Part shown: in pieces, positions 1-16,546 of the stretch
Numbering within the stretch: position 1 is the stretch's first letter
How the letters are laid out: each line of letters opens with the position of its first letter
Source: a bacterium
GTDB lineage: Bacteria > UBA8248
Assembly (NCBI GenBank): GCA_965219955.1
Contig: OZ244799.1
Coordinates: forward strand, 3,456,001 to 3,520,000
Direction of reading: 5' to 3'
Length of the DNA: 64,000 bases
Translations under genes and position numbers: made by a program
Notes under the pieces: model-generated
Database searches by the model: none
The model's input: the letters and a program-made list of their open reading frames with translations, nothing else
What the model was told of the DNA's origin: nothing

Positions 1-488
1 TGGTTCTGAAGCTCCGCTCGCGCCTTGGATGCTTCAAGCTCTATGGTCGTCCTGGTCTGTTCGAGCAGGCGCCTTGCCTGATTCTCCTGTTCTTCTTCGA
101 GTCTTTCCCGCATCGCGACGCGTTCTTTCTCGCCCTGCTCGCGAACGCGCACGAGTTCGGCTTCCAGATCAGCTACCTTGGAGCGTTGCTCTGCAAGCTG
201 TTTTTCCGCCTCTTCCCGGGCCGCCCGGGATTCCTCGAGCGCCTTGCGAACCCCCTCCCTCCTGTCTTTGAGGAAGTTCTTGATGGGGTTAAACGCGACC
301 TTGTAGAGAATCGCCACGACGATAAGCGTATTGACGATCTTGAAGAGTTCCTCGGTAAAGCTGAACGCCTTGACGTGCGCTCCGGCATCCGCGGCGAGAA
401 CCCATTCCGCGGAAAACAGAGCCGCCGCCAGAATCAGAAAGCTCGAAATGCTGCTGGATTTTTTCACTGAAAACACGGCTCTTCGCAT
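1..488 (-). CDS. atpF: F0F1 ATP synthase subunit b (partial, runs off window edge)
   Basis: Not in the ORF track. Hand translation from ATG at 488 gives MRRAVFSVKKSSSISSFLILAAALFSAEWVLAADAGAHVKAFSFTEELFKIVNTLIVVAILYKVAFNPIKNFLKDRREGVRKALEESRAAREEAE..., a TM helix followed by a long charged coiled coil. It lies directly downstream of the b' gene. Confidence 0.85.
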   Translation of the reverse strand, partial: MRRAVFSVKKSSSISSFLILAAALFSAEWVLAADAGAHVKAFSFTEELFKIVNTLIVVAILYKVAFNPIKNFLKDRREGVRKALEESRAAREEAEKQLAEQRSKVADLEAELVRVREQGEKERVAMRERLEEEQENQARRLLEQTRTTIELEASKARAELQN

Positions 489-491
489 CCT

Positions 492-1070
492 CTATGCGAC
501 ACTGCGGCCTGCAAGCCTCGTGGCGATTTCACCCGCCAGGCGGCTGGCCCCGCTCTCGAGTTCTGAAGCCGCCTGCTTCGCCTGCGCCGATATGGACTGG
601 CGCGTCTCCTCGATCTCGCGGTTTGTTCTCTCGCGAACCTCATCGAGGCGCTTGCGGGTCGCTTCGGTCATCTCCTGCTGGAGCGCGATGAGGGCTTCGG
701 TGTTCTCGCGCTGAATTTCCGCCAGCGCATCCTCGTACTGACTGATGTAACCGGCCGCCTCGCCCCTGTCGCGTTCGGCGGCCTCGAAGTCGCCGGAAAT
801 CTGCGCGTCGCGAGATTCCATGTGGCTCATCAGGGGTTTAATCAGAATTTTGTTGAGGACAACCAGCAGGATCAGAAAGTTGGCCCACTGGATCAGGATG
901 ACGATCGGGTTGATGATGAGGGCGCCGCTTCCCACGTTGAAGCCCGCAAGCCAGGCGCCGAACCCGCTTTGGGGGGCGCTCGCCGCCCAGGAGACGGAGG
1001 GCGCGACCAACAGCATGAGAACCAGCGTTAAACAGAACGCGAATCGTTTCAAACGAAATAGGCGGATCAT
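492..1070 (-). CDS. F0F1 ATP synthase subunit b'
   Basis: ILIQWANFLILLVVLNKILIKPL TM motif plus coiled coil, typical of ATP-synt_B. Start at ATG 1070 (MIRLF) chosen from the GAGG RBS. Confidence 0.85.
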   Translation of the reverse strand: MIRLFRLKRFAFCLTLVLMLLVAPSVSWAASAPQSGFGAWLAGFNVGSGALIINPIVILIQWANFLILLVVLNKILIKPLMSHMESRDAQISGDFEAAERDRGEAAGYISQYEDALAEIQRENTEALIALQQEMTEATRKRLDEVRERTNREIEETRQSISAQAKQAASELESGASRLAGEIATRLAGRSVA

Positions 1071-3752: not shown

Positions 3753-4175
3753 TTGAGCCTCGAAGTCGCCGGCGTCCTGGAAACGTGCATCTATGCCGAA
3801 GATCTGGATGCGGCGGAGGCGTTCTACCGCTCCGTGCTGGGGCTGGAGGCGTTTCAAAGAGCGCCCGGCCGCCACGTTTTCTTTCGCTGCGGGCCGCATG
3901 CCGTTTTCCTCGTCTTCAACCCCGAAGCGACCTCCCGGCCCGACATGAAGCTCGGCGTGCCGACGCATGGCGCGGCGGGGCCGGGGCACGTGACGTTCTC
4001 CATACGCGAGGCCGATATGGCCTCCTGGCGAAAGCGGCTGGCGGAACAGGGGGTGGACATCGAGCAGGAGGTCGACTGGCCCGGCGGCGGACACTCCCTC
4101 TATTTCAGGGACCCGGCGGGGAACAGCGTGGAGCTCGCTTCGCCTCGCATCTGGCGGCTGCCCGAGCCCTCCTGA
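3753..4175 (+). CDS. VOC (glyoxalase/bleomycin resistance) family protein
   Basis: LETCIYAEDLDAAEAFY...HVTF...SLYFRDPAGNSVELA. Confidence 0.9.
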   Translation: MSLEVAGVLETCIYAEDLDAAEAFYRSVLGLEAFQRAPGRHVFFRCGPHAVFLVFNPEATSRPDMKLGVPTHGAAGPGHVTFSIREADMASWRKRLAEQGVDIEQEVDWPGGGHSLYFRDPAGNSVELASPRIWRLPEPS

Positions 4176-4500
4176 ATTTCAAGTGGTTGTAAATACTCGC
4201 GTTCTGCGGTCGATCTCCCGATGTTATTTTCGTTTATTTATCGGAAAACCCCGTGAATTTATCTGATTTTAGCGAATTTTCCGGAAATTCCCCAAGGCCT
4301 CGAAGAGGACGAGCCCGACCGAGGCGAGGCGGTTGAAAAAGCCATCCACACTCAGAATTCACCGCCGCCGGAATGACCAACAAAGCCGCAAGGGCTGTAG
4401 GGACAGGCCCCCGTGCCTGTCCGATGCCCTGTACTACAAGGGACAACCACAGGGGGCAGGACAACCCTTTTAGGTTGTCCTGCTGCAAAACCCCCTCCCC

Positions 4501-4808
4501 GGGGTTGTTGAAAAGTCCCTCGATGCGGGAACACCACCGTCATTCCGGCCTTGAGCCGGAATCCATTTTTATGATTTTTGCTTTCGTTTTCGCATTTGAT
4601 TCCGATTCGCGGGAGAGAGCGTTGCGCCCGAATGCGGAACGGACGAGGCGGACATATACGGCGGCGTCCGTATTTTCCCCGGCCGGAAGTGAGGATGTCC
4701 GGGGGAAAGGCCAAAGACAAAGGCGAAAATGGATTCCGGCTCAAGGCCGGAATGACGAGCAAAGGCGAAGGTCAATCCCGAGCGAAGCAAGGCTTTTTCA
4801 ACAGCCCC
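4501..4808. mobile_element. MITE-like element with GGGG(T/C)TGTTGAAAA terminal inverted repeats, enclosing a perfect 32-bp inverted repeat
   Basis: Left end ggggttgttgaaaa (4501) and right end ttttcaacagcccc (ending 4808). Internal cgtcattccggccttgagccggaatccatttt (4538-4569) is the exact reverse complement of 4726-4757. No transposase ORF. Confidence 0.65.
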
Positions 4809-5110
4809 GATGAAGGAGCGAACGCGTTTCCCCGGGGAAGGGGAAAAACGCGCCTCCTGAAGCCGAATCGCCCGAATCGCTTCTCTCCTCCTCGCGTCCA
4901 CAAGCGCGGCAATCCCCCGATCGGGATTGATTTTCCGCGCGGGATTCTCCCCCGCCCCGCGAAAAACCCGGTAACCCCAAATGCGGGAAAATGCGCGGCC
5001 CGTTCCTGCCGGGCAAGAGGGCCGGACAATCCCACCGAACACCCGGCGCCCATGCGCGCCCGCGCATCCCCCATGACCCGATATTCGCCATCCCCCCCTC
5101 TAAAAAAACC

Positions 5111-5140
5111 TTGCGTCCCGCGCGCTGCGTATCGTAATCT
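5111..5140 (+). promoter_or_regulatory. Putative sigma70 promoter of Cache-autotransporter gene 1
   Basis: TTGCGT-N18-TAATCT, conserved upstream of gene 2 (TTGCTT-N18-TAATCT, 9497-9526) although the flanking DNA differs. Confidence 0.5.
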
Positions 5141-5208
5141 GAACGCATATTCATTTTTGTTGCGACAGATCTACGCGGGTATTGCCATATCGGTAACGAA
5201 GCAGAAAG

Positions 5209-5294
5209 TCTCGTCCACGCCTCGATGAGGCCGGGTGTCGGCGCGAACGAACGCCCCGTCGCGCTTCCCGCCGCGGACGGCCCGGGGCACGAGG
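5209..5294 (+). ncRNA. Candidate structured 5' leader (copy 1)
   Basis: Near-identical to 9593-9678. Predicted stems: cgtcc/ggacg, gcctc-gat-gaggc, cggg/cccg, gcgcga/tcgcgc. Confidence 0.4.
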
Positions 5295-5357
5295 TCAATC
5301 CCGACCGGAGAGGGAGGGATTGCGCGATTGAATAGCCAACACACCAGGAGGATCATG

Positions 5358-8300
5358 ATGACATTTCCAAAGCGAATACTTCTGGCAACGCTTATCTCGG
5401 CGCTGTTCAGCGCATTGGCCGCCGCGCCCGCCGCCTTCGCGCAGGAGTGCCCACGCGGACCCGGCGTTCCGGAGCTCCCGCCTCCCGCCGTGACGGCAGC
5501 CGAAGCGGATGCGGACCCCACCAAACTGGGGGAATTCGCCCTGGCGGCGTTAAGCGCCACGATAGCTCCCACAAGGAGCATCGATGAGGCATATTACATC
5601 GCATGCCTGTTCAGGCAGAGAGGGGGGCCCTTCTTTTCCGGCTCCACCTATACCATCTCCCTGACTCTCGACGGCAGGGTGTGGATCAACGCGAACGACA
5701 TGTCGACGGGAGGCGAACCGCTCAACCCCCGGATTTATGGAGCGATCCTCCATGCGCTGGGAATCGACGTCACCAGCCCGGCCGCCATACAGGCCGGTCT
5801 GGGGAGCGTGGCCGCAACGGGAACCTTCCCGAAGCCGGAGGGCGGCGCATTCAACGCAGGTCCACTCGGCGTACCGGGCGCTTCGGGCTACGCAGTCGGA
5901 TACATCGCCCCCCGTACCCGAACTCCATTCATCCTGCTGGCCGGTTTCGATCTTCAGGCATCCCATCTGGCGCCGGATGACGTCGACCCCGGCATGCCCG
6001 CGATAACGGCCGCCCAGGTCACCGACCGCGCGACGCTCAAGCAATTCGTCGATGAAGCGGTGGATTTCGCGAAGACCCTCTTCGAAAGCGGGGATCCCGC
6101 CGCCTTCTCGAAAATAAGGATCGCCTTTCGGGATCCGAACGGCCCCTGGAGGCACGGCCCCACCTATCTCTTCGTCATGCAGCGCACCGGCTACACGATC
6201 TTTCACGGTGCGTTCCCGGACAGGTTCGAGTTCCAGACTCCGACAAATAACCTGAGGGAGCAGTTGCCGTCGGGTGAACAGGGCGACCTTATTCTGCCGA
6301 AGATCATCCGGACCGCGAGAAACAACCCCGCCGGCGACTTCGTGGAGTATTATTTCGACAACCCGGACGATCCCGCCGACGACTTCAACACCCTCAAGGT
6401 GAGCTACGTGCGCGAGTACGAAGTGGAAGTCCCGTTGCCGGGTGGAGGGGTTTACCGGGATGCGATCATCGTAGGCGCGGGGATCTACGGAGAAGGCGGG
6501 GGCATCGTGGCGCAAGGCTGCCCGCTCCCGGCGGGCGTGGCCGAGAATACTCTCGCCACCCCGAGCGTCACGGCCGCTGATGTGGAGGCGGATCCCAGCC
6601 GACTGATGGACTTCGCCCTCGCGGCGAAGCGATATATGGAGAGCGTCGAGAGAGGGCCGGAACTGGCGCACAACGCCTGCGTCGTCAGGCAGGATGGGCC
6701 CTGGAAGTCCGGCGACACCTATATCGTCACGATAAATACAGAGGGGAGGGTGTTCTTCCACTCGAAAAGCGCAGCGTTGGGCGGCAGGCCGCTCAAGCGT
6801 CCCGTTTGGGCGGCGATCGCCGCCGCGACGGGTGCTGCCGCATTGCGCACGACGCGCGCCTTCGGGAACCCGAACGGCGGCGCCTTGCCGGCGCAAATCG
6901 GCGGCGGCTACGCAGTCGGCTTCACGCGGGCAGGAGGCAATCCGCTCATCCTCGTCGCGGGCCTCGACATCGGGGAAGCGCACCTCGACAGGGAGACCAT
7001 CGACCCGGGCGACCCGACAGTACGGGCCGACCAGGTGGTGGACCGCGCAACACTCAAGACCTTCGTGGAAGAGGCGAGGGATTACGTCCTGAGCGCTTTC
7101 CGCTCAGAAGGCCGCGCAGCGTTCAACCAGGTAAAGAGCGTCTTGCGGGATCCGAATGGACCCTGGAGGCACGGCCCCGTCTATCTCTTCATCATGGAAC
7201 CCACCGGCTACACGATCTTTCACGGGGCTTTCCCCGATAAATTCGAATTCCGGAGGCCCACGGACACACTGAGAGACGAAGTCACCGGAGAACTCATTCT
7301 GCCGCAGATCATCCGGGTCGCGACAACCAGCAAAGACGGCGGCTTCGTGCGGTACTTCTTCGACAACCCCGATGATGATTCCGACAGCGCCGACGTACCC
7401 AAGGTGACCTATGCGCTCCAGCACCCTTTCGAGACGACGCTGGCGGACGGGAGCACGTTCGAATACCCGCTCATCTTCGGCGCGGGCATCTACGGGGATG
7501 AGGGTGCAGTGTCCGAGAAGAGCGTGGCGGCGGCGAGGGGCTGGCTGGCGCGCTTCGGCCGCGCGGTGGGAAGCCAGGCGGTGGACATGATCTCGAACCG
7601 CCTGAACGCGCCCGCGCAGGGCGGGGCGAAGATGACGCTCGGCGGCCGGACGGTGAAGCTGGATGCGGATCCGGACAGCTACCTGGCGAAAGAAGACGTG
7701 GGCCTCACCGCCTCCCTCGCGCATGACGGAATCGATTCCCGCGGCCTCTCGCGCCCGATACTCACGAACCGGTTGACCAATGGGGAGGAGGATTCCCCGG
7801 GGGCCTACCGCGAAATGACGATGAGCCAGCTGCTCTCGGGCGCTTCGTTCCACCTGGCTTCGACCAAGGAAGCCGCGGAGGCGGCGGGCAGCAGATGGTC
7901 GATCTGGGGCCGCGGCGCGCAGAGTTCGTTCGAGGGCGGCGGAGAGGCCGCGATCGAGGGCGACGTGACGACGGCCATGCTCGGCGTGGATTACGAGAAG
8001 GGCAGGCTCCTCGCGGGCGTGGCGCTCTCACGAGCCAGCGGCGACGGGGGTTTCCAGAACGGGGAGCTCGAGGCGACCCTCACGAGCGTGCATCCCTACC
8101 TCCGCTACGAGGCGAGCGAGCGGCTCTCGTTGTGGGGGGTCCTGGGCATGGGCCAGGGCGAGATGACGCTCGAGGAGAGCGATCAGAAACACGAGACCGA
8201 CATCGATATGCGCATGGGCGCGTTCGGGCTTCGCGGCGAGATAGCGAAGATGGGCGGGTTCGACCTGGCGCTCAAATCAGACGTCCTCCTCACGCAGATG

Positions 8301-8960
8301 GACTCGGACGCGAAGGACGGGCTCGAGGCCATCTCGGCGGAGTCGAGCCGCCTGCGGGTGATGCTCGAAGCCTCGCGCAAGGTCGCCATGGAGGGCGGCG
8401 GGACAATCAGGCCTTCGGTGGAGGTGGGTCTCCGCAACGACGGCGGCGACGTGGACGAGGGTATGGGCGTCGAAGTCGGCGGCAGCATTCGCTTCACGAG
8501 TCCCTCCATGGGCCTGACGCTCGAGGTGAATGCGCGGGGGCTCGTGACGCACGAGGAAAGCGACGTGAGCGACTGGGGCGTGGGCGGGATGATCCGCATC
8601 GCCCCGGGCAAGAAAGGCCGGGGACTCGCCCTCACCGTGCGGCCCGAAGTGGGAGAAACCGCGAGCGGCGCGGCGCGCCTGTGGGGTCTCAAGGACGCCT
8701 CGCGTCTCGCGAAAGAGGAAATCGAGGACCTCGACCCCCGCGTGCGCGCGGAGGTGGGCTACGGCCTGGACGCCTGGGGCGGCCTGCTCACACCCTACGC
8801 CGGCCTCTCGGTGTCGGATAGCGGAAACGGGACCTACCGCCTGGGAAGCCGCTTCAGGATGGGCGAGCGCCTGAGCATGAGCCTGGAGGGCGACGTGCGC
8901 GAGCGCGTGAACGCCGACCCGGTGCACGGCGTGGCGCTGCGAGGAACAATGCGCTGGTAG
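5358..8960 (+). CDS. Secreted protein with tandem Cache-like domains (2 modules) and C-terminal autotransporter-like beta-barrel
   Basis: Sec signal ending AAFA|Q and an AGGAGG RBS. Two repeats of ATLKxFVxEA...RDPNGPWRHGPxYLFxM..TGYTIFHG...L.D...G.LILP.II..A...G.FV.Y.FDNP...KVsY...GAGIY match the single-Cache (sCache_2) pattern. The C-terminal part is amphipathic beta-strands ending in Trp. Confidence 0.8.
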   Translation: MTFPKRILLATLISALFSALAAAPAAFAQECPRGPGVPELPPPAVTAAEADADPTKLGEFALAALSATIAPTRSIDEAYYIACLFRQRGGPFFSGSTYTISLTLDGRVWINANDMSTGGEPLNPRIYGAILHALGIDVTSPAAIQAGLGSVAATGTFPKPEGGAFNAGPLGVPGASGYAVGYIAPRTRTPFILLAGFDLQASHLAPDDVDPGMPAITAAQVTDRATLKQFVDEAVDFAKTLFESGDPAAFSKIRIAFRDPNGPWRHGPTYLFVMQRTGYTIFHGAFPDRFEFQTPTNNLREQLPSGEQGDLILPKIIRTARNNPAGDFVEYYFDNPDDPADDFNTLKVSYVREYEVEVPLPGGGVYRDAIIVGAGIYGEGGGIVAQGCPLPAGVAENTLATPSVTAADVEADPSRLMDFALAAKRYMESVERGPELAHNACVVRQDGPWKSGDTYIVTINTEGRVFFHSKSAALGGRPLKRPVWAAIAAATGAAALRTTRAFGNPNGGALPAQIGGGYAVGFTRAGGNPLILVAGLDIGEAHLDRETIDPGDPTVRADQVVDRATLKTFVEEARDYVLSAFRSEGRAAFNQVKSVLRDPNGPWRHGPVYLFIMEPTGYTIFHGAFPDKFEFRRPTDTLRDEVTGELILPQIIRVATTSKDGGFVRYFFDNPDDDSDSADVPKVTYALQHPFETTLADGSTFEYPLIFGAGIYGDEGAVSEKSVAAARGWLARFGRAVGSQAVDMISNRLNAPAQGGAKMTLGGRTVKLDADPDSYLAKEDVGLTASLAHDGIDSRGLSRPILTNRLTNGEEDSPGAYREMTMSQLLSGASFHLASTKEAAEAAGSRWSIWGRGAQSSFEGGGEAAIEGDVTTAMLGVDYEKGRLLAGVALSRASGDGGFQNGELEATLTSVHPYLRYEASERLSLWGVLGMGQGEMTLEESDQKHETDIDMRMGAFGLRGEIAKMGGFDLALKSDVLLTQMDSDAKDGLEAISAESSRLRVMLEASRKVAMEGGGTIRPSVEVGLRNDGGDVDEGMGVEVGGSIRFTSPSMGLTLEVNARGLVTHEESDVSDWGVGGMIRIAPGKKGRGLALTVRPEVGETASGAARLWGLKDASRLAKEEIEDLDPRVRAEVGYGLDAWGGLLTPYAGLSVSDSGNGTYRLGSRFRMGERLSMSLEGDVRERVNADPVHGVALRGTMRW

Positions 8961-8978
8961 TATAGAAGGGAAAACTCT

Positions 8979-9258
8979 GTAGGGGCCGTTCGCGAACGTG
9001 GGCCGTTCTTGTGAACGGCCCCTACGGGGAGGAAACACGTTTTCTGTAGGGACAGGTCGCGACCTGTCCTTGCGAGGCGGTTCGGTTTCGTTCGTCATTC
9101 CGGCAATCAATGCCGACCGACGAGGGAGGGATTGCCCGGAATCCATTTTCACGCCTTTTGCCTTTCTTCAGCCTTCCCGTGCATCGGCGGGGAAGGAAAC
9201 GCCGCCGTGTATTCACCCGCATCCGCAAATGGATTCCGGCTTTCGCCGGAATGACGAT
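8979..9258. repeat. Cluster of GTAG-type REP-like palindromes and GTCATTCCGG inverted repeats
   Basis: gtaggggccgttc...gaacggcccctac, gtagggacaggtcgcgacctgtcc, and cgtcattccgg...ggaatccatttt / aaatggattccggctttcgccggaatgacg. The same units occur at 4397, 4538, 19176, 19316 and 34332. Confidence 0.7.
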
Positions 9259-9306
9259 AATCTGCGGGTCGAGGTGGGATAGGGGCGGTTCGCGAACTCA
9301 TGAGCG

Positions 9307-9400
9307 CCCTTCGATACGCCGCCTTCGGCGGCTACTCAGGATGAAGAACGTGGGGAGCGGAGCTTGTCCCGAGCGAAGTCGAGGGGCCGCTACCCAGGGT
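9307..9400. repeat. CCCTTCGATACG...CTACTCAGG palindromic repeat plus GAGCxTGTCCCGAGCGAAGTCGAGGG unit
   Basis: cccttcgatacgccgccttcggcggctactcagg is identical at 26385 and present as reverse complement at 34511-34579. The second unit recurs at about 34695. Confidence 0.7.
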
Positions 9401-9496
9401 GAGGCAGAGCGGTCGGCTACACAAGGTGAGGAGGGGGGATTGCGTTGCTTTCGGGCGTCTCTCACACCGGACTTCCGCTATCCCCCCTGAAAAACC

Positions 9497-9526
9497 TTGC
9501 TTCTCGCGCGCTGCATATCGTAATCT
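9497..9526 (+). promoter_or_regulatory. Putative sigma70 promoter of Cache-autotransporter gene 2
   Basis: TTGCTT-N18-TAATCT, in a block homologous to 5101-5147. Confidence 0.5.
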
Positions 9527-9592
9527 AAACGCATAAACAGCATTCACGACATTTTCACGCCCGCTTCGCCGTACCGGAAACGAAACAGAGTA

Positions 9593-9678
9593 TCTCGTCC
9601 ACGCCTTGATGAGGCGGGTTGCCGGCGCGACCGAACGCCCCGTCGCGCTTCCCGGCGCGGACGGCCCAAGACACGAGG
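9593..9678 (+). ncRNA. Candidate structured 5' leader (copy 2), abutting the RBS
   Basis: Same stems as copy 1, with a G-U-compatible change (gcctt-gat-gaggc). It ends in acgaggag, the Shine-Dalgarno before ATG 9687. Confidence 0.4.
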
Positions 9679-9686
9679 AGAACACC

Positions 9687-12600
9687 ATGAGGACTCTAAA
9701 ACCGTTATTTTTCTTTTGCCTCGTTCTGACCCTGGCCGGCGTATTGGCCGGCGCGCCCCCCGTCTTCGCGCAGGATAGCTGCCCGCTTCCGGCGGGCGTC
9801 ACGGCGAATCCGCTCGCCACCCCGAGCATTACGGCGGCTGACGTGGAGGCGGATTCCAACCGATTGACGGACTTCGCCCTGGCGGCGAGAGACTATATGG
9901 AGAGCGTCCGGCCCCCGGGCGAATTGGCGCACAACGCTTGCATCATCCGCCAGGAGGGCCCCTGGAAGTCCGGCGGCACCTACCTCGTCACCATATCCCT
10001 TGATGGAAGGGTGTTCTTCCACTCGGCCAGGGCGGCGTTGGGCGGCAAGCCGCTCAGCAATGCGGTTCGTCTAGCCATTTATCGCGCGCTGGGCATCACC
10101 GCCACCGCGCCTGCCGACATCCGCGCCGCCCTGGTCAATGTGGCCGAAACAGGGAGCTTTCCGAACGCGGATGGGGGCGTCTTGCCGGCGGGAATCGGCG
10201 GCGGCTACGCTGTCGGGTTCAGGCGCACCGGGGGGAATCCGCTCATATTGGTCGCCGGACTCGATATCGGGGAAGCTCACTTCGGCACGGAAACCGTCGA
10301 CCCCGGCGACCCCGACGTGCGGGCCGACGAGGTGGTGGACCGCGCTACGCTCAAGGCCTTCGTGGAGGAAGCGACGCAGTACGTCATCGACCGCTACCGG
10401 GCGGAAGGCCGCACCGCTTTTACGCAAATAAAGAGCGTCTTGAGGGATCCGGCCGGACCCTGGAGGCACGGCCCGACCTATCTCTTCATCATGGAGCCCA
10501 CCGGCTACACGATCTTTCACGGCGCGTTCCCCGACAGGTTCGAGTTCCAGACGCCGACAGATACCCTGAGGGAGCAGTTGCCGTCGGGTGGACAGGGCGA
10601 CCTCATTCTGCCGAAGATCATCCGGACCGCGAGAAGCAACCCCGCCGGCGACTTCGTCGAGTATTATTTCGACAACCCCGACGACCCGAACGACGACTTC
10701 AACACCCTCAAGGTGAGCTACGTGCGCCAGCACGTCTTCCAGGCCACGAGGGCGGACGGGACCACGTTCGAATACCCGCTCATCTTCGGCGCGGGCATCT
10801 ACGGGGAAGGCGGGGGCATCGTGGCGCAAGGCTGCCCGCTCCCGGCGGGCGTCACGGCGAATCCCCTCGCCAGCCCGAGCGTAACGGCCGAGCAGGTGGA
10901 AGCGGGCTCCGCCGGTTTGAGCGATTTCGCCCTGGCCGCGAAGCGATACATGGAGAGCGTCGAGAGAGGGCCGGAACTGGCGCACAACGCCTGCGTCGTC
11001 AGGCAGGATGGTCCCTGGAAGTCCGGCGACACCTATCTCGTCACGATAAATACCGAGGGGAGGGTGTTCTTCCACTCGAAAAGCGCAGCGTTGGGCGGCA
11101 GGCCGCTCAAGCGTCCCGTCTGGGCGGCGATCGCCGCCGCGACGGGCGCTGCCGCGTTGCGCACGACAGGCGCCTTCGGGAACCCGAACGGCGGCGCATT
11201 ACCGGCGCAGATCGGCGGCGGCTACGCCGTCGGCTTCACGCGGGCAGGAGGCAATCCGCTCATCCTCGTCGCGGGCCTCGACATCGGGGAAGCACACCTC
11301 GACAGGGAGACCATCGACCCCGGCGACCCGACAGTGCGGGCCGACCAGGTGGTGGACCGCGCAACGCTCAGGACTTTCGTGAACGAAGCTACGGATTACG
11401 TCCTGAGCACTTTCCGCTCGGAAGGCCGCGCCGCGTTCAACAAGGTAAAGAGCGTCTTGCGGGATCCGAACGGACCCTGGAGGCACGGCCCCGTCTATCT
11501 CTTCATCATGGAACCCACCGGCTACACGATCTTTCACGGGGCGTTCCCCGACAGATTCGAATTCCGGAGGCCCACGGAAACCCTGAGAGACGAAGTCACC
11601 GGACGGCTCATTCTGCCGCAGATCATCCGGACAGCGACAAGCAGCGAGGACGGCGGTTTTGTCCAGTATTACTTCGACAACCCGGATGACCCGAACGACG
11701 ATTTCAACACATTCAAGGTGACCTACGCGCGCCAGCACGTCTTCAGCAGCACGCTGGCGGACGGGACCCCGTTCGAATACCCGCTCATCTTCGGCGCGGG
11801 CATCTACGGCGACCCGAGCGCGGTGGCGGAGGACGTCTGCCCGCGCCCACCGGGTCTTGCAGACAACCCCCTCGCCACCCCGGGCGTAACGGCGGCTCAG
11901 GCGACGGGCGGCGACAATCTTCGCGCCTTCGCGCTGGCGGGGAGAGACTATTTCAACTCCATTACGACGCCGCAGGGGTTGGCCTACGCCGGATGCCTCG
12001 TCAGGAACGAGGGCCCCTGGAAGTCAGGCGACACCTACATCTCCGCCCTGACGCTCGACGGCAGGGTGCTCCTGAACGGGAAAGACATGTCGACGGGAGG
12101 CAGGCCGCTCCAGGACGCGGTTTATGCGGGCATCCTCGGCGCGCTGGGAATCGATCTCGCCGATCCGAGGACCATACCTGCCCAACTGCAGCAGGTATTC
12201 GCAAATCGCGCTTTCCCGAACGCGGACGGCGGCGCATTGCCGGGCGGCGGCTACGCCGTGGGGTACTTTGGCAGCAATATCCCGTACATCCTGCTCGCAG
12301 GCGTAGACCTCCAGGAAGCGCACTTCAAGGAGGATACCGCCGACCCCGGCGACCCGGACGTTAGCGCCGATGAAGTGGTGGACCGCGCAACGCTCAAAGC
12401 CTTCGTGAACGGGGCGGTAGACTACCTGCTCGAACTCTACCGGACAAACCCCGCCGGAGCCATCGGAATCGCGAGAAGCATACTGAGAAGACCACCCTGG
12501 AAGCACGGCCCCGTCTATCTCTTCATCATGGAAGACAGCGGCTACACGCTCCTTCACGGGGGGTTCCCGGACAGGTTCGAATTCCAGACGCCGACGCAAA

Positions 12601-14294
12601 CCTTGCGGGACGAGGTGACCGGAAATCTCATCTTGCCGCAGATCATCAACGTGGCGAAACAAAGCGGGGAGGAGGGCGGCTTCGTGCGCTACTTCTTCGA
12701 CAACCCGGCCGACGACACCGACAGCGCAGACGTGCCGAAGGTGACCTACGCGCGCCTGTTGACATTCCCCATACCGGGAGGCCAGCCGGTTTCCTACATC
12801 GTCGGCGCGGGGATCTACGGGGATGAGGGCGCCGTGTCCGAGGAGAGCGTGGCGGCGGCGAGGGGCTGGCTGGCGCGCTTCGGCCGCGCGGTGGGAAGCC
12901 AGGCGGTGGAGATGATATCGAGCCGCCTGAACGCGCCCGCGCAGGGCGGGGCGAAGATGACCCTCGGCGGACGGACCGTGAACCTCGGTGCGGATATGGA
13001 ACGCTACCTGGCGAAAGAAGACGTGGGCCTCACCGCCTCCCTCTCGCATGATGGAATCGACGCCCGCGGCCTCTCGCGCCCGATACTCACGAACCGGCTG
13101 ACCAATGGGGAGGAGGATTCCCCGGGGGCCTACCGCGAGATGACGATGAGCCAGCTGCTCTCGGGCGCTTCGTTCCACCTGGCTTCGAACAAGGAAGCCG
13201 CGGAGGCGGCGGGCAGCAGGTGGTCCATCTGGGGCCGCGGCGCGCAGAGCTCCTTCGAGGGCGGCGGCGAGGCCGCGATCGAGGGCGACGTGACGACGGC
13301 CATGCTGGGCGTGGACTACGAGAAGGGCAAGCTCCTCGCGGGCGTGGCGCTCTCTCGCGCGAGCGGCGACGGGGGCTTCAGGAACGGAGGCCGCAGCGAG
13401 CTCGAGGCGACCCTCACGAGCGTGCACCCCTACCTCCGCTACGAGGCGAGCGAGCGGCTCTCGCTGTGGGGGGTCCTGGGCATGGGCCAGGGCGAGATGA
13501 CGCTCGAGGAGAGTGATCAGAAGCACGAGACCGACATTGATATGCGCATGGGCGCGTTCGGGCTTCGCGGCGCGCTCGCGAAGGTGGGCGGGTTCGACCT
13601 GGCGCTCAAATCCGACGTTATGCTGACGCAGATGGACTCGGACGCGAAGGACGGGCTCGAGGCCATCTCGGCGGAGTCGAGCCGCCTGCGGGTGATGCTG
13701 GAAGCCTCGCGCAAGGTCGCCATGGAGGGCGGCGGGACGCTCCGGCCTTCGGTGGAGGTGGGTCTCCGCAACGACGGCGGCGACGTGGACGAGGGTATGG
13801 GCGTCGAAGTCGGTGGCAGCCTGCGCTTCACGAGTCCCTCCATGGGCCTGACGCTCGAGGTGAATGCGCGGGGGCTCGTGACGCACGAGGAAGAAGACGT
13901 GAGCGACTGGGGCGTGGGCGGGATGATCCGCATCGCCCCGGGCAAGAAAGGCCGGGGACTCGCCCTCACCGTGCGGCCCGAAGTGGGAGAAACCGCGAGC
14001 GGCGCGGCGCGCCTGTGGGGTCTCAAGGACGCCTCGCGTCTCGCGAAAGAGGAAATCGAGGATCTCGACCCCCGCGTGCGCGCGGAGGTGGGCTACGGGC
14101 TGGACGCCTGGGGCGGCCTGCTCACGCCCTACGCCGGCCTCTCGGTGTCGGATAGCGGAAACGGGACCTACCGCCTGGGAAGCCGCTTCAGGATGGGCGA
14201 GCGCCTGAGCATGAGCCTGGAGGGCGACGTGCGAGAGCGCGTGAACGCCGACCCCGTCCACGGCGTGGCGCTGCGCGGCTCCCTGCGCTGGTAA
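9687..14294 (+). CDS. Secreted protein with tandem Cache-like domains (3 modules) and C-terminal autotransporter-like beta-barrel; paralog of 5358-8960
   Basis: Sec signal ending PVFA|Q and a GAGGAG RBS. Three CPxP...GAGIYG modules. The C-terminal part (about 490 aa) is nearly identical to gene 1 and ends in Trp. Confidence 0.8.
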   Translation: MRTLKPLFFFCLVLTLAGVLAGAPPVFAQDSCPLPAGVTANPLATPSITAADVEADSNRLTDFALAARDYMESVRPPGELAHNACIIRQEGPWKSGGTYLVTISLDGRVFFHSARAALGGKPLSNAVRLAIYRALGITATAPADIRAALVNVAETGSFPNADGGVLPAGIGGGYAVGFRRTGGNPLILVAGLDIGEAHFGTETVDPGDPDVRADEVVDRATLKAFVEEATQYVIDRYRAEGRTAFTQIKSVLRDPAGPWRHGPTYLFIMEPTGYTIFHGAFPDRFEFQTPTDTLREQLPSGGQGDLILPKIIRTARSNPAGDFVEYYFDNPDDPNDDFNTLKVSYVRQHVFQATRADGTTFEYPLIFGAGIYGEGGGIVAQGCPLPAGVTANPLASPSVTAEQVEAGSAGLSDFALAAKRYMESVERGPELAHNACVVRQDGPWKSGDTYLVTINTEGRVFFHSKSAALGGRPLKRPVWAAIAAATGAAALRTTGAFGNPNGGALPAQIGGGYAVGFTRAGGNPLILVAGLDIGEAHLDRETIDPGDPTVRADQVVDRATLRTFVNEATDYVLSTFRSEGRAAFNKVKSVLRDPNGPWRHGPVYLFIMEPTGYTIFHGAFPDRFEFRRPTETLRDEVTGRLILPQIIRTATSSEDGGFVQYYFDNPDDPNDDFNTFKVTYARQHVFSSTLADGTPFEYPLIFGAGIYGDPSAVAEDVCPRPPGLADNPLATPGVTAAQATGGDNLRAFALAGRDYFNSITTPQGLAYAGCLVRNEGPWKSGDTYISALTLDGRVLLNGKDMSTGGRPLQDAVYAGILGALGIDLADPRTIPAQLQQVFANRAFPNADGGALPGGGYAVGYFGSNIPYILLAGVDLQEAHFKEDTADPGDPDVSADEVVDRATLKAFVNGAVDYLLELYRTNPAGAIGIARSILRRPPWKHGPVYLFIMEDSGYTLLHGGFPDRFEFQTPTQTLRDEVTGNLILPQIINVAKQSGEEGGFVRYFFDNPADDTDSADVPKVTYARLLTFPIPGGQPVSYIVGAGIYGDEGAVSEESVAAARGWLARFGRAVGSQAVEMISSRLNAPAQGGAKMTLGGRTVNLGADMERYLAKEDVGLTASLSHDGIDARGLSRPILTNRLTNGEEDSPGAYREMTMSQLLSGASFHLASNKEAAEAAGSRWSIWGRGAQSSFEGGGEAAIEGDVTTAMLGVDYEKGKLLAGVALSRASGDGGFRNGGRSELEATLTSVHPYLRYEASERLSLWGVLGMGQGEMTLEESDQKHETDIDMRMGAFGLRGALAKVGGFDLALKSDVMLTQMDSDAKDGLEAISAESSRLRVMLEASRKVAMEGGGTLRPSVEVGLRNDGGDVDEGMGVEVGGSLRFTSPSMGLTLEVNARGLVTHEEEDVSDWGVGGMIRIAPGKKGRGLALTVRPEVGETASGAARLWGLKDASRLAKEEIEDLDPRVRAEVGYGLDAWGGLLTPYAGLSVSDSGNGTYRLGSRFRMGERLSMSLEGDVRERVNADPVHGVALRGSLRW

Positions 14295-14314
14295 TATAGA
14301 AGGAGAATCGCCAA

Positions 14315-14345
14315 GGGGCGGCCCTCCGGGGCCGCCCCCGTTTTT
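14315..14345 (+). terminator. Intrinsic terminator after autotransporter gene 2
   Basis: ggggcggccc-tccg-gggccgcccc hairpin followed by ttttt. Confidence 0.75.
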
Positions 14346-14429
14346 CATTTGGCAAAAGGGCTTCGTAGGGGCGGACCTATCCCGACCGAAGAGGGGGAGG
14401 CAGGGATTGCAAGATGCGTAGTTTTAACA

Positions 14430-14618
14430 ATCACTCCCCCCTTTGAGGGGGAGTCGAAGAGCTGAGGGCGTAAGCCCGAAAGCGATTCGGTGGGGGGAGT
14501 AATTCGGATGGCGATAAAACGCATTTTACCCCCCACCGAGTCAGCCTTCGCACAAAACGCTCGGCTTCCTCGTCGGGCTTTCCCCTCGGGAAGCCCGACC
14601 CTCAAGGGGGGAGTGATT
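14430..14618. repeat. Palindromic miniature element with ATCACTCCCCCCTT(T)GAGGG terminal inverted repeats
   Basis: atcactccccccttt gaggg ... ccctcaaggggggagtgat, with an internal cggtgggggg/ccccccaccg pair. A related element lies at about 34371-34463. Confidence 0.6.
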
Positions 14619-14848
14619 TTTCTCTCTCGTCGGTCGGTTACATACGACAAATCCAGAGTTCCAGGGTTTTTCAACAACCCTTTGAGGGTCAGGCGCATCC
14701 GGGGCGGGTCGTCCCTGAAAAACCCTTTTCCCGGCAGGGCGAACGCCACTTTCCTGTTGCAATTCCCCGCCTCGCCTTCTACGATATTTCCCGCTGGAGC
14801 GCATCCGCGCCATAGACTCGTCACCCTTCAAAATGCGAGGATAGAAGA

Positions 14849-16546
14849 GTGAAAACCGCACTGACTCTCATCGCCACCCTATGTGTTTTCCTCACCGCGC
14901 AGGCGGCCCACGCCGCGCGCGGGGCCGACGGGCACCTGCGCATCATCTACTGGCAGGCGCCCTCCACCATGAACCCCTACCTCTCGGGCGGCACCAAGGA
15001 GATAGAGGCCGCATCGCTGGTCCTGGAGCCCCTCGCGCGCTACGACCAGAACGGCGACATGAAGCCCTGGCTCGCCGAACGGGTCCCCACGCTGGAAAAC
15101 GGCGGCGTGTCGAAGGATTTGCGCACCATCACCTGGAAGCTAAAGGGCGGCCTCAAGTGGGCCGACGGAACGCCGGTGACGGCCAAAGACGTGGTCTTCA
15201 CCTGGAAATACTGCACGCATCCCCAGGGGGGGTGCTCCCAGAGCGAGAAATACAACGACGTGAAGAACGTGGAGGCCCTCGACGCGCGAACGGTGCGCGT
15301 GACCTTCGGCGCCTCGAAACCCTTTCCCTACGGGCCGTTCGTCGGCGCGCAGGCGCCCATCATCCAGGCGGCGCAGTTCGCCGACTGCCTGGGCGCCAGG
15401 GCGCCGCGCTGCACCGACGCCAACTTCAAGCCCGTGGGCACGGGGCCGTTTACAGTCGCCGAGTTCCGCCCGAACGACGTCATCTCCTTCGTCGCCAACA
15501 ACAACTACCGCGACCCGGCCAGGCCCGCCTTCGCGCGGGTCACCTTCAAGGGGGGGGGCGACGCGGCGGCGGCGGCCCGCTCGGTGCTGGAGACCGGCGA
15601 GTTCGACTACGCCTGGAACCTGCAACTCGCCCCCGACGTGCTGGCGAACATGAAAAAGGCGGGCAAGGGGGTGGTCATCTCCTCGTTCGGTACGCTCGTC
15701 GAGCGCATCGTCGTGAACCTCACGAATCCGGCCCCAGGGCTCGGCAAGGAGCGCTCCACCGCCAGGCACCCGCATCCTTTTCTCTCGGACCCGAGCGTCC
15801 GCAAGGCGCTCTCGATGGCGATCGACCGGAAGCTGCTCGTCGAGATCGGCTACGGCCCCGCCGGCAGGCCAACGTGCAACATCCTCCCCGCGCCCGCCAT
15901 CTACAAGTCCACGGCCAACGATGCGTGCCTCAAGCAGGATATCCCCGGCGCGAACAGGCTGCTCGATGCGGCGGGCTGGAAACGCGGGCCGGGCGGCGTG
16001 CGCGCCAAGAACGGCGTGAAACTCTCGATTCTCTACCAGACCTCCACCAACGCCGTGCGCCAGGATTTCCAGGCGCTGATAAAACAGTGGTGGTCCAAGA
16101 TCGGCGTCGAGACCGAGCTTCGCAACATCAGCGCCTCGGTGTTCTTCGGCGGCGACCCGGCGAGCGGCGACACCTTCCAGAAGTTCCAGGCCGACGTGCA
16201 GATGTACGCCAACAATTTCGACGGCACGGACCCCGAATCCTACATGGCGAACTGGGCGTGCAAGGAAGCGCCGCGTCCCGAAACGCAGTGGCAGGGCAAC
16301 AACGTGCCGCGCTTCTGCGACCCCGCCTACGACGCGCTCATCGCCAAAATGGCGCGCGCCGGCGCGCTCAAGGAACGGGCGCGGCTCGCCAGGGCCATGA
16401 ACGACATGGTGGTGCAGGCCTACGCGATCATTCCGCTGGTCGACCGCGGGCGCGTATCGGCCCACGCCAAGACGCTGGGCGGCGTGGTCCTGAACACCTG
16501 GGATTCGGAGCTTTGGAACATCGCCGACTGGCGCCGCGTCAAATAG
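14849..16546 (+). CDS. Peptide/nickel ABC transporter substrate-binding protein (family 5)
   Basis: Signal peptide (AAHA), LKWADGTPVTAKDVVFTW, PVGTGPF, VRKALSMAIDR. Confidence 0.92.
   Translation: MKTALTLIATLCVFLTAQAAHAARGADGHLRIIYWQAPSTMNPYLSGGTKEIEAASLVLEPLARYDQNGDMKPWLAERVPTLENGGVSKDLRTITWKLKGGLKWADGTPVTAKDVVFTWKYCTHPQGGCSQSEKYNDVKNVEALDARTVRVTFGASKPFPYGPFVGAQAPIIQAAQFADCLGARAPRCTDANFKPVGTGPFTVAEFRPNDVISFVANNNYRDPARPAFARVTFKGGGDAAAAARSVLETGEFDYAWNLQLAPDVLANMKKAGKGVVISSFGTLVERIVVNLTNPAPGLGKERSTARHPHPFLSDPSVRKALSMAIDRKLLVEIGYGPAGRPTCNILPAPAIYKSTANDACLKQDIPGANRLLDAAGWKRGPGGVRAKNGVKLSILYQTSTNAVRQDFQALIKQWWSKIGVETELRNISASVFFGGDPASGDTFQKFQADVQMYANNFDGTDPESYMANWACKEAPRPETQWQGNNVPRFCDPAYDALIAKMARAGALKERARLARAMNDMVVQAYAIIPLVDRGRVSAHAKTLGGVVLNTWDSELWNIADWRRVK

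Follow-up and report, generated by a model that had tools for sequence, protein, structure and literature searches.

Tandem sCache_2 arrays on an autotransporter-like C-terminal region in two paralogous proteins of a UBA8248 bacterium

No extracellular sensor module is more common in prokaryotes than the Cache domain, which is understood as an input wired to a transmitter. Type Va autotransporters consist of a signal peptide, an N-terminal passenger and a C-terminal region that closes with an aromatic residue; NalP (1uyn), EspP, Hbp, AIDA-I and BrkA belong to this group, as do EstA (3kvn) and AaaA (9oqa), whose passengers are globular. Two adjacent genes, called A and B here, join these two kinds of element. 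They lie at positions 5355..8960 and 9687..14294 (+ strand) of a 64,000-nucleotide (nt) stretch of contig OZ244799.1 (assembly GCA_965219955.1, positions 3,456,001 to 3,520,000), the window of this analysis, from a bacterium of the GTDB lineage UBA8248. Gene A encodes a signal peptide, two tandem-Cache modules and an autotransporter C-terminal region, and gene B the same parts with three modules. This architecture, a tandem sCache_2 array with an autotransporter-like C-terminus and no output domain, is well supported. A and B are probably type Va-like autotransporter paralogues whose Cache-array passenger binds a carboxylate-bearing ligand at the cell surface, at several sites and without signalling; as to function, we infer multivalent surface binding of such a ligand, by an adhesin or a capture protein.

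Besides the overall plan, the likeness to type Va autotransporters comprises the modelled helix and 12-strand barrel of the C-terminal region, which superpose on the solved structures with Z scores of 24-29. However, the passenger of A and B is a Cache array, with no beta-helix, autochaperone or enzyme, both proteins miss the Pfam family Autotransporter (PF03797), and the C-terminal region, as modelled for B, has an insert of ~90 amino acids (aa) and a 117-aa tail. On the sensor side stand the sCache_2 domains of chemoreceptors, such as PscD-SD (5g4y), Adeh_3718 (4k08), a V. parahaemolyticus methyl-accepting chemotaxis protein (MCP; 2qhk/4exo) and TlpB. These have the same fold (Z 15-16, 20-22% identity), belong to the same Pfam family and share the pattern of Tyr/His/Tyr/Lys with two aromatic residues. 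Unlike them, A and B have no flanking membrane helices, HAMP, kinase or MCP output; their domains come as tandem pairs, repeated two or three times on a secretion barrel, and have the extra invariant residues R210, W216 and D282. dCache domains also have two PAS-like modules per extracytoplasmic unit, and Pfam dCache_2 scores highest with A and B. However, this match covers profile positions about 80-184, one module only, dCache structures align to the C-terminal half of our modules only (Z 9-11), and the two halves are tandem duplicates, each with its own helices, where a dCache domain builds its two modules on one long N-terminal helix. The alpha2-delta subunits of calcium channels (7vfs_B and 5gjv_F; Z 9.2-9.4) are likewise extracellular and membrane-tethered, with several Cache modules and no signalling domain, but they are eukaryotic, belong to the dCache_1 type, carry a VWA domain and serve as auxiliary channel subunits; we propose no evolutionary link to them. 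The same module is also found in type IX cargo (P0123, P0129, P0130 and others), at 46% identity over the whole module (measured to B_M2, the second module of B, for P0123 and P0130) and again with no output domain. These metagenomic proteins have a Por_Secre_tail or FlgD_ig anchor instead of the barrel. An earlier note on this DNA, made from the sequence, knew of no described system with this architecture, and none was found in the full-text literature, supplements being outside the search; nor was any paper found there on autotransporters of sponge-symbiont Nitrospinota.

Open reading frame (ORF) calls and translations bear out the two adjacent paralogues of about 1200 and 1535 aa that the earlier note had placed here on the + strand. 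Gene A starts at ATG 5355 (1201 aa) or at ATG 5358 (1200 aa), where the database copy P0016 (1200 aa) also begins, and its stop is at 8960. Gene B, of 1535 aa, has a GAGGAG upstream of its ATG at 9687 and its stop at 14294. As read from the sequence, both translations begin with a putative Sec-type signal peptide, in which a basic n-region precedes a hydrophobic core and an A-x-A cleavage site: aa 1-29 in A (5355..5441, +), cut between AFA and QE, and aa 1-28 in B (9687..9770, +), cut between VFA and QD. The modules follow on the same strand. Those of A are A_M1 (5448..6518, 357 aa), with two Cache-like halves and the most divergent module in the alignment and in the tree, and A_M2 (6519..7499, 327 aa), which is 88% identical to B_M2. 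Those of B are B_M1 (9780..10832, 351 aa), B_M2 (10833..11837, 335 aa) and B_M3 (11838..12833, 332 aa).

The repetition, two modules in A and three in B, was confirmed by alignment. All five align end to end, with a measured length of 327-357 aa, 113 invariant columns and identities of 47-88% (47-56% to A_M1). The repeat goes far beyond chance: in the DNA, the repeat families keep a common register of about 1005-1053 nt. Every motif that had been quoted is present, both for the second half (GPWRHG, YLFIM, FHG, LILPQII, FDNP, KVTY and GAGIY) and for the first (DFALAA, GPWKSG, GRVFFH, GYAVG and ILVAG). The genome, a single contig of 4,283,615 bases (4.28 Mb), holds no module copy other than the five of the window. 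NCBIfam has no family for A or B, and a comparison of the gene B sequence with the chains of the PDB gave nothing meaningful (best E 0.9).

The second half of the module follows the sCache_2 pattern, as proposed, both by Pfam score and by fold. Pfam sCache_2 (PF17200) matches A at 26.2 bits and B at 38.3 bits (cut-off 25), and dCache_2 matches them at 35.7 and 63 bits (cut-off 26.5), with 30.9 bits for the second half of B_M3 alone. All Pfam Cache matches of A and B fall within module second halves. An AlphaFold model of B_M2 alone, built from a 71-sequence alignment (predicted local distance difference test, pLDDT, 94.7; predicted template modelling score, pTM, 0.91), separates an N-half (residues 1-168) from an sCache_2 C-half (173-330). 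The top four PDB matches of this model in Foldseek are the sCache_2 chemoreceptor domains 4exo, 2qhk, 5g4y and 4k08 (E 1e-5 to 4e-5, target template modelling (TM) score 0.61-0.70). With VIA-align, 2qhk superposes on residues 173-330 with a Z of 16.2, a root-mean-square deviation (rmsd) of 2.7 Å over 135/148 residues and 20% identity, and 4k08 and 5g4y reach Z 15.4 and 15.2 on the same half. The C-half of B_M3, which was modelled jointly with the C-terminal region, gives Z 15.6 against 2qhk; most 10-residue blocks of residues 1-330 have a pLDDT of about 85-96, the lowest 72-78. In addition, a profile of the 71 relatives finds the 2qhk sequence with E 1.3e-6.

The first half of the module had been described as a diverged copy of the same domain, and three lines of evidence agree with this. 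By hhalign, residues 1-168 (first half) match residues 169-335 (second half) with a probability of 98.9% and E 1.1e-17, the alignment covering 129 columns. In the B_M2 model, helices and strands succeed one another in the same order in either half, and each half has its own helix pair. Five distant whole-module relatives (P0194, P0206, P0208, P0213 and P0223) have two Pfam sCache_2 stretches per unit of ~340 aa. Pfam alone does not show the first half as Cache, since its result on the N-halves is so weak: B_M2 gave only sCache_3_2, at E 0.06, and B_M3 had no match. The structural matches listed are all on the C-half, which takes up the whole list, and none is on the N-half. On the three lines of evidence above, the count of four Cache-like domains in A and six in B stands.

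A signalling output was sought and not found. In line with the earlier note, no transmembrane helix or output domain was found in A or B by Pfam and NCBIfam, and the flanking membrane helices and cytoplasmic transmitter typical of sensors were not found either. MCPsignal, HisKA, GGDEF and HAMP were reported for none of the 58 relatives scanned with Pfam, which were those without a barrel or of odd appearance. The 120 listed relatives show only eight precomputed families, none recognised as signalling.

For gene B, the C-terminal region was modelled together with module 3 as one piece of 818 aa, using 58 single-module relatives; the mean pLDDT was 76.8. The earlier note had called the region an autotransporter-like barrel ending in Trp. 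The fold and the final ...LRW hold good, but the region is more than a barrel: its 486 aa comprise a helix, a low-confidence stretch of ~90 aa, 12 strands and a beta-rich tail of 117 aa. The predicted alpha-helix (model residues 335-364 by DSSP; 12840..12929, +) sits at the position of the pore helix, the superpositions on NalP, EspP, AIDA-I, Hbp and EstA starting at 326-336. Between the helix and strand 1 lies the ~90-aa insert (12936..13211, +; pLDDT about 28-46), which is atypical for type Va. The barrel itself (model residues 461-701; 13218..13940, +) has 12 DSSP strands, which span 461-699. With the helix included (model range 336..701), it superposes by VIA on NalP (1uyn) with Z 29.2 and rmsd 2.0 Å over 258 residues, followed by Hbp (Z 28.6), AIDA-I and EspP (both 27.3), EstA (26.2) and BrkA (24.9). 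The best Foldseek matches are BrkA (E 4.6e-9, TM 0.81), EstA, NalP, Hbp, EspP (TM 0.77) and AIDA-I. As modelled, the C-terminus is a type Va autotransporter-like fold. The conserved tail (13941..14291, +) adds six further DSSP strands at pLDDT 51-76 and ends in ...LRW, with Y753, G781 and W818 invariant in the 58 relatives. The protein thus closes with an aromatic residue, Trp, yet strand 12 of the model stops about 117 residues before it. That the tail arose as a copy of barrel strands was considered and rejected, the hhalign comparison of tail and barrel strands being not significant (probability 3%, E 0.015). The C-terminal region of gene A (7500..8957, +; 486 aa) has 93-95% DNA identity to that of B (repeats D6 and D7); its sub-parts are assigned by homology to gene B and place the putative counterpart of the tail at 8607-8957.

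The same model bears on the proposal that the proteins form a Cache-gated outer-membrane channel, or a sensor that signals via a partner. Ligand binding is known to alter the conformation of receptor Cache domains, and with 18 DSSP strands in all the barrel region is large; the tail, if it joined the barrel, could widen the pore. The confident part of the model is, however, a 12-strand barrel with a helix inside and no open channel. A gated channel is disfavoured because this helix occupies the pore as in solved autotransporters. Furthermore, there is no conserved partner gene, and the type IX relatives keep the module without any barrel. Of the functional options the channel is the least likely, and a very improbable one.

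Relatives of the module are numerous. Searching 1.84 billion cluster representatives with one module gave 429 clusters at E<=1e-3, of which 77 reached E<=1e-30, and a word-indexed search with gene B returned 135 proteins, 120 of them listed. More than 100 relatives are held under the machine-given names 'autotransporter domain-containing protein' or 'hypothetical protein', and the listed ones come from metagenome-assembled genomes (MAGs) labelled Nitrospinae, Gemmatimonadota and Deltaproteobacteria. Our own profiles were run over 267 rows, genes A and B among them. The C-terminal profile matched over more than 250 positions in 107 of these, and a C-terminal region was found together with one module in 66 rows, two in 18, three in 15 and four in 2. 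In the 58 relatives rescanned with Pfam, the anchors and partner domains were FlgD_ig (8), Por_Secre_tail (7), Autotransporter (3) and PKD, Big_2, LTD and DUF4397 (1 each). Two unrelated export or anchoring devices, barrel and type IX sorting, on one and the same module speak for a function outside the cell; type IX sorting domains on modules 46% identical to ours argue for surface display.

In PscD, Tyr90, His103, Tyr143 and Lys156 form hydrogen bonds to the carboxylate, which lies between Trp92 and Trp145; the Tyr, His and Lys of that site are conserved across the sCache family, and the structurally known sCache_2 pockets contain C2-C3 carboxylates (PMC5062169). The C-half of the module has the same spacing, with Y222-x-aromatic224, H235 (+13), Y279-x-aromatic281 and K295. 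Conservation is nearly complete among 71 relatives: Y222 and aromatic281 are kept in all 71, H235, Y279 and K295 in 70 and aromatic224 in 66. Clamp and aromatic positions are identical across all five window modules. R210, W216 and D282, which are invariant in this family, suggest a pocket that differs from those of the C2-C3 carboxylate sensors.

Taken together, the following mechanism would fit. After Sec export, the C-terminal barrel would insert into the outer membrane, and the Cache array would be threaded out and stay tethered by the pore helix. Each C-half pocket would retain its Tyr/His/Tyr/Lys clamp for a carboxyl group. Since the five modules do not differ in their pocket core, the surface would carry several identical sites for one carboxylate-bearing ligand, and with no transmitter, binding itself would be the output. 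Such sites might attach the cell, through avidity, to a host matrix or a polymer that bears carboxyl groups, or they might serve for capture of, or coating with, a small organic or amino acid. The identical pocket cores, the variation in copy number and the Ig-like partner domains in relatives make us lean to a role in adhesion or recognition. A Cache domain with an intact clamp, carried as multicopy secretion cargo with no transmitter, would make binding an end in itself, and the arrays would be a new passenger class for autotransporters.

The module is patchily distributed. In the same genus, it occurs in 12 of 22 other genomes, and the number of modules per ORF varies; 18 more distant relatives searched have none. 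A wider scan of one genome per species gave 526 stretches encoding relatives, of which the best 80 (78 loci), all from MAGs, were used. Full modules are present in 75 of the 78 loci, under nine phylum labels: Pseudomonadota (32), Acidobacteriota (7), Nitrospinota (6), Latescibacterota (6), Gemmatimonadota (5), Binatota (4), Rhodothermota (2), Thermodesulfobacteriota (1) and Chloroflexota (1), with 11 unlabelled. A quick LG+G4 tree was built from 125 full-length modules of the 78 loci, the five window modules included. On this tree the phylum label has to change 26 times, where 8 changes would suffice at best, and the starred cross-phylum sister pairs with short branches include a Latescibacterota and a Gemmatimonadota locus (L071 and L065; branches of 0.049 and 0.025). 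A_M1 falls in the other major clade from A_M2, B_M1, B_M2 and B_M3, which are part of an expansion within a Nitrospinota-labelled group. The mixing of nine labels in the tree suggests that the family moved between phyla by horizontal transfer. The genes are accessory and variable in module number, and would have been exchanged between phyla that share a habitat. One relative lies on a 6.9-kb contig labelled Dehalococcoidia (L078), a short contig that may be mis-binned. The phylum of the Dehalococcoidia is usually regarded as having no outer membrane.

As to habitat, the index of sequencing runs gave 20 matching runs from six studies. One study, possibly the source of the window itself, was set aside; the other five are labelled in the index as sponge metagenome (3), marine metagenome (1) and coral metagenome (1). 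The contigs of four runs were compared with the window. Pieces 95-99% alike occur in contigs from two RNA libraries and from the DNA run X5, which has a sponge metagenome label; those of X5 are 997-1067 nt long with 9-15 differences. Accessory occurrence, variable module number, the nine-label tree and the near-identical copies under sponge labels make the genes a candidate interaction factor for such communities. An enrichment of Cache domains has been described for sponge-associated archaea, and surface recognition was proposed there (PMC7848895). A bolder reading would join these observations: bacteria of at least nine phylum labels, marine and host-associated, would trade and display one Cache array, by type V or type IX routes, that binds one carboxylated molecule of the host or community, in order to stick to the host matrix or to be recognised as, or hidden from, the host. 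A barrel of more than 12 strands, with the 117-aa tail joined to it, would let folded, disulfide-bonded Cache domains pass. In this full form the scenario is speculative and unlikely.

Several points weigh against reading A and B as surface-displayed autotransporters with a carboxylate-binding passenger. PF03797 gave no match with the C-terminal regions of the window at E up to 10. Their sole Pfam barrel match is OMP_b-brl, at 25.4 bits for gene A, below the cut-off of 28.7. In favour of the barrel, PF03797 does match six of six relatives rescanned, which are 36-76% identical over module and barrel, with 30.6-42.8 bits (cut-off 26), mostly over profile positions 1-212 of 255. With the ~90-aa insert and the 117-aa tail of the model, the translocation unit may work unlike that of NalP or EspP. 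Each module also has a pair of Cys residues at positions 1 and 54 (53 apart), kept in 62/71 and 63/71 relatives. Large disulfide loops hinder autotransporter secretion, and the conserved pair would count against export of the array by this route. In the pocket, the proposed equivalence to PscD is based on motif spacing and a HMMER alignment to 2qhk rather than on residue-level superposition. The N-half keeps Tyr68 (65/71) and His81 (62/71), the latter replaced by Asn in A_M1 and B_M3, but the Tyr-x-aromatic strand and the Lys are lost, so half of the Cache domains may bind nothing; the N-half may be structural or may bind something else. As for the distribution, the phylum labels are those of the submitters and some short contigs may be mis-binned; many loci are on megabase contigs. 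Transcription is weakly hinted at by two RNA libraries of one study (X19 and X20), with gene B contigs of 168-498 nt and 2-9 differences and more diverged pieces of gene A; DNA carry-over is possible, and the cover is partial, so that gaps are no sign of silence. Finally, clustering of the flanking ORFs of 70 loci revealed no conserved neighbour that points to a pathway.

Because of the Cys pairs and the atypical surroundings of the barrel, retention in the periplasm is possible: the barrel would serve as an anchor only, and the array would stay in the periplasm and, as a set of binding proteins, hold or buffer an organic or amino acid near porins or transporters. Folded globular domains with Cys residues 53 apart make poor autotransporter cargo, yet EstA and AaaA are globular passengers exported by this type of barrel. 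The insert and tail around the barrel are unusual, but the helix of the model is placed inside the pore, like that of exported autotransporters. In this genus the genes are closely followed by those of a periplasmic solute-binding protein and ABC permeases, although the neighbourhood is not kept beyond the genus (one weak case, L088). Close relatives of the module carry type IX sorting and extracellular Ig-like domains, with which only an extracellular function fits. A periplasmic tether is accordingly quite improbable in our estimate.

Among the 70 more distant loci, a single recurrent neighbour was found, a group II pyridoxal phosphate (PLP)-dependent amino-acid decarboxylase that is directly adjacent in eight (L019, L020, L022, L025, L028, L041, L044 and L051), in three arrangements and under at least three phylum labels. 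It falls below every NCBIfam cut-off. The adjoining decarboxylase may hint at an amino acid as the ligand. It also speaks for the main rival to an adhesin, in which the array captures a free metabolite for uptake, signal removal or coating, as a decoy or cloak. A clamp invariant across phyla is easier to explain by a universal small ligand than by a host-specific protein, and small carboxylates are what the known sCache_2 pockets hold, as noted above. However, stoichiometric binding at a few surface sites takes up little, and no uptake system is conserved beside the genes. The decarboxylase adjoins the genes in 8/70 loci, but in the genome of the window its two tandem homologues (86% and 82% identical; G000:C1:3068861-3071882) are about 390 kb away. 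Multivalency, variation in copy number and Ig-like partners are more typical of adhesins. Capture in place of adhesion is thus rather unlikely.

Around the genes themselves, FAA hydrolase, DUF1643, enoyl-CoA hydratase and glyoxalase genes lie upstream, and SBP_bac_5 and two ATP-binding cassette (ABC) permease genes downstream. These neighbours recur in same-genus loci only (4-6 loci), with the one weak exception of L088. Both the SBP_bac_5/ABC permease genes and the upstream genes were considered as functional partners and rejected, synteny being confined to the genus. ABC ATPase clusters are scattered among the flanking ORFs of the 70 loci. In some gammaproteobacterial loci, a neighbouring ORF (L083:3718-4719) has a weak match to TbpB_B_D, at 26.3 bits against a cut-off of 26. 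TbpB_B_D is the beta-barrel lobe of transferrin-binding protein B, a surface lipoprotein fold.

The two genes share a stretch of 132 nt in their upstream regions, at 5163..5294 (+) for A and 9547..9678 (+) for B, which form the direct repeat D12 with 81% identity. This stretch is probably a common 5' control region, leader or untranslated region (UTR). A scan of 4150-14900 for the sigma-70 consensus gave 0 sites, and an Rfam scan of the window found nothing. A strong terminator-like hairpin with 10 G-C pairs and a T run (14315..14348, +) begins 21 nt past the stop codon of gene B.

Dispersed small repeats flank both genes, outside the proteins. They are about 100-250 nt long, and some have terminal inverted repeats, resembling miniature inverted-repeat transposable elements (MITEs). 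The intergenic region at 9050..9460 (no strand assigned) has 100 matches in the own genome, and 14295-14850 is likewise filled with repeats (73 matches). In metagenome runs, the intergenic repeats have a very high summed contig depth, and depth is also high at 4300-5033. These flanking repeats could promote the rearrangements of genes and modules that are seen among relatives. In the interval 4300-15300, contig joints from metagenome runs X18 and X5 skip gene A or gene B, or fuse the first modules of A and B in register. They may come from strain variants that differ in module number, or from chimeric assembly across the repeats, and were not used as evidence.

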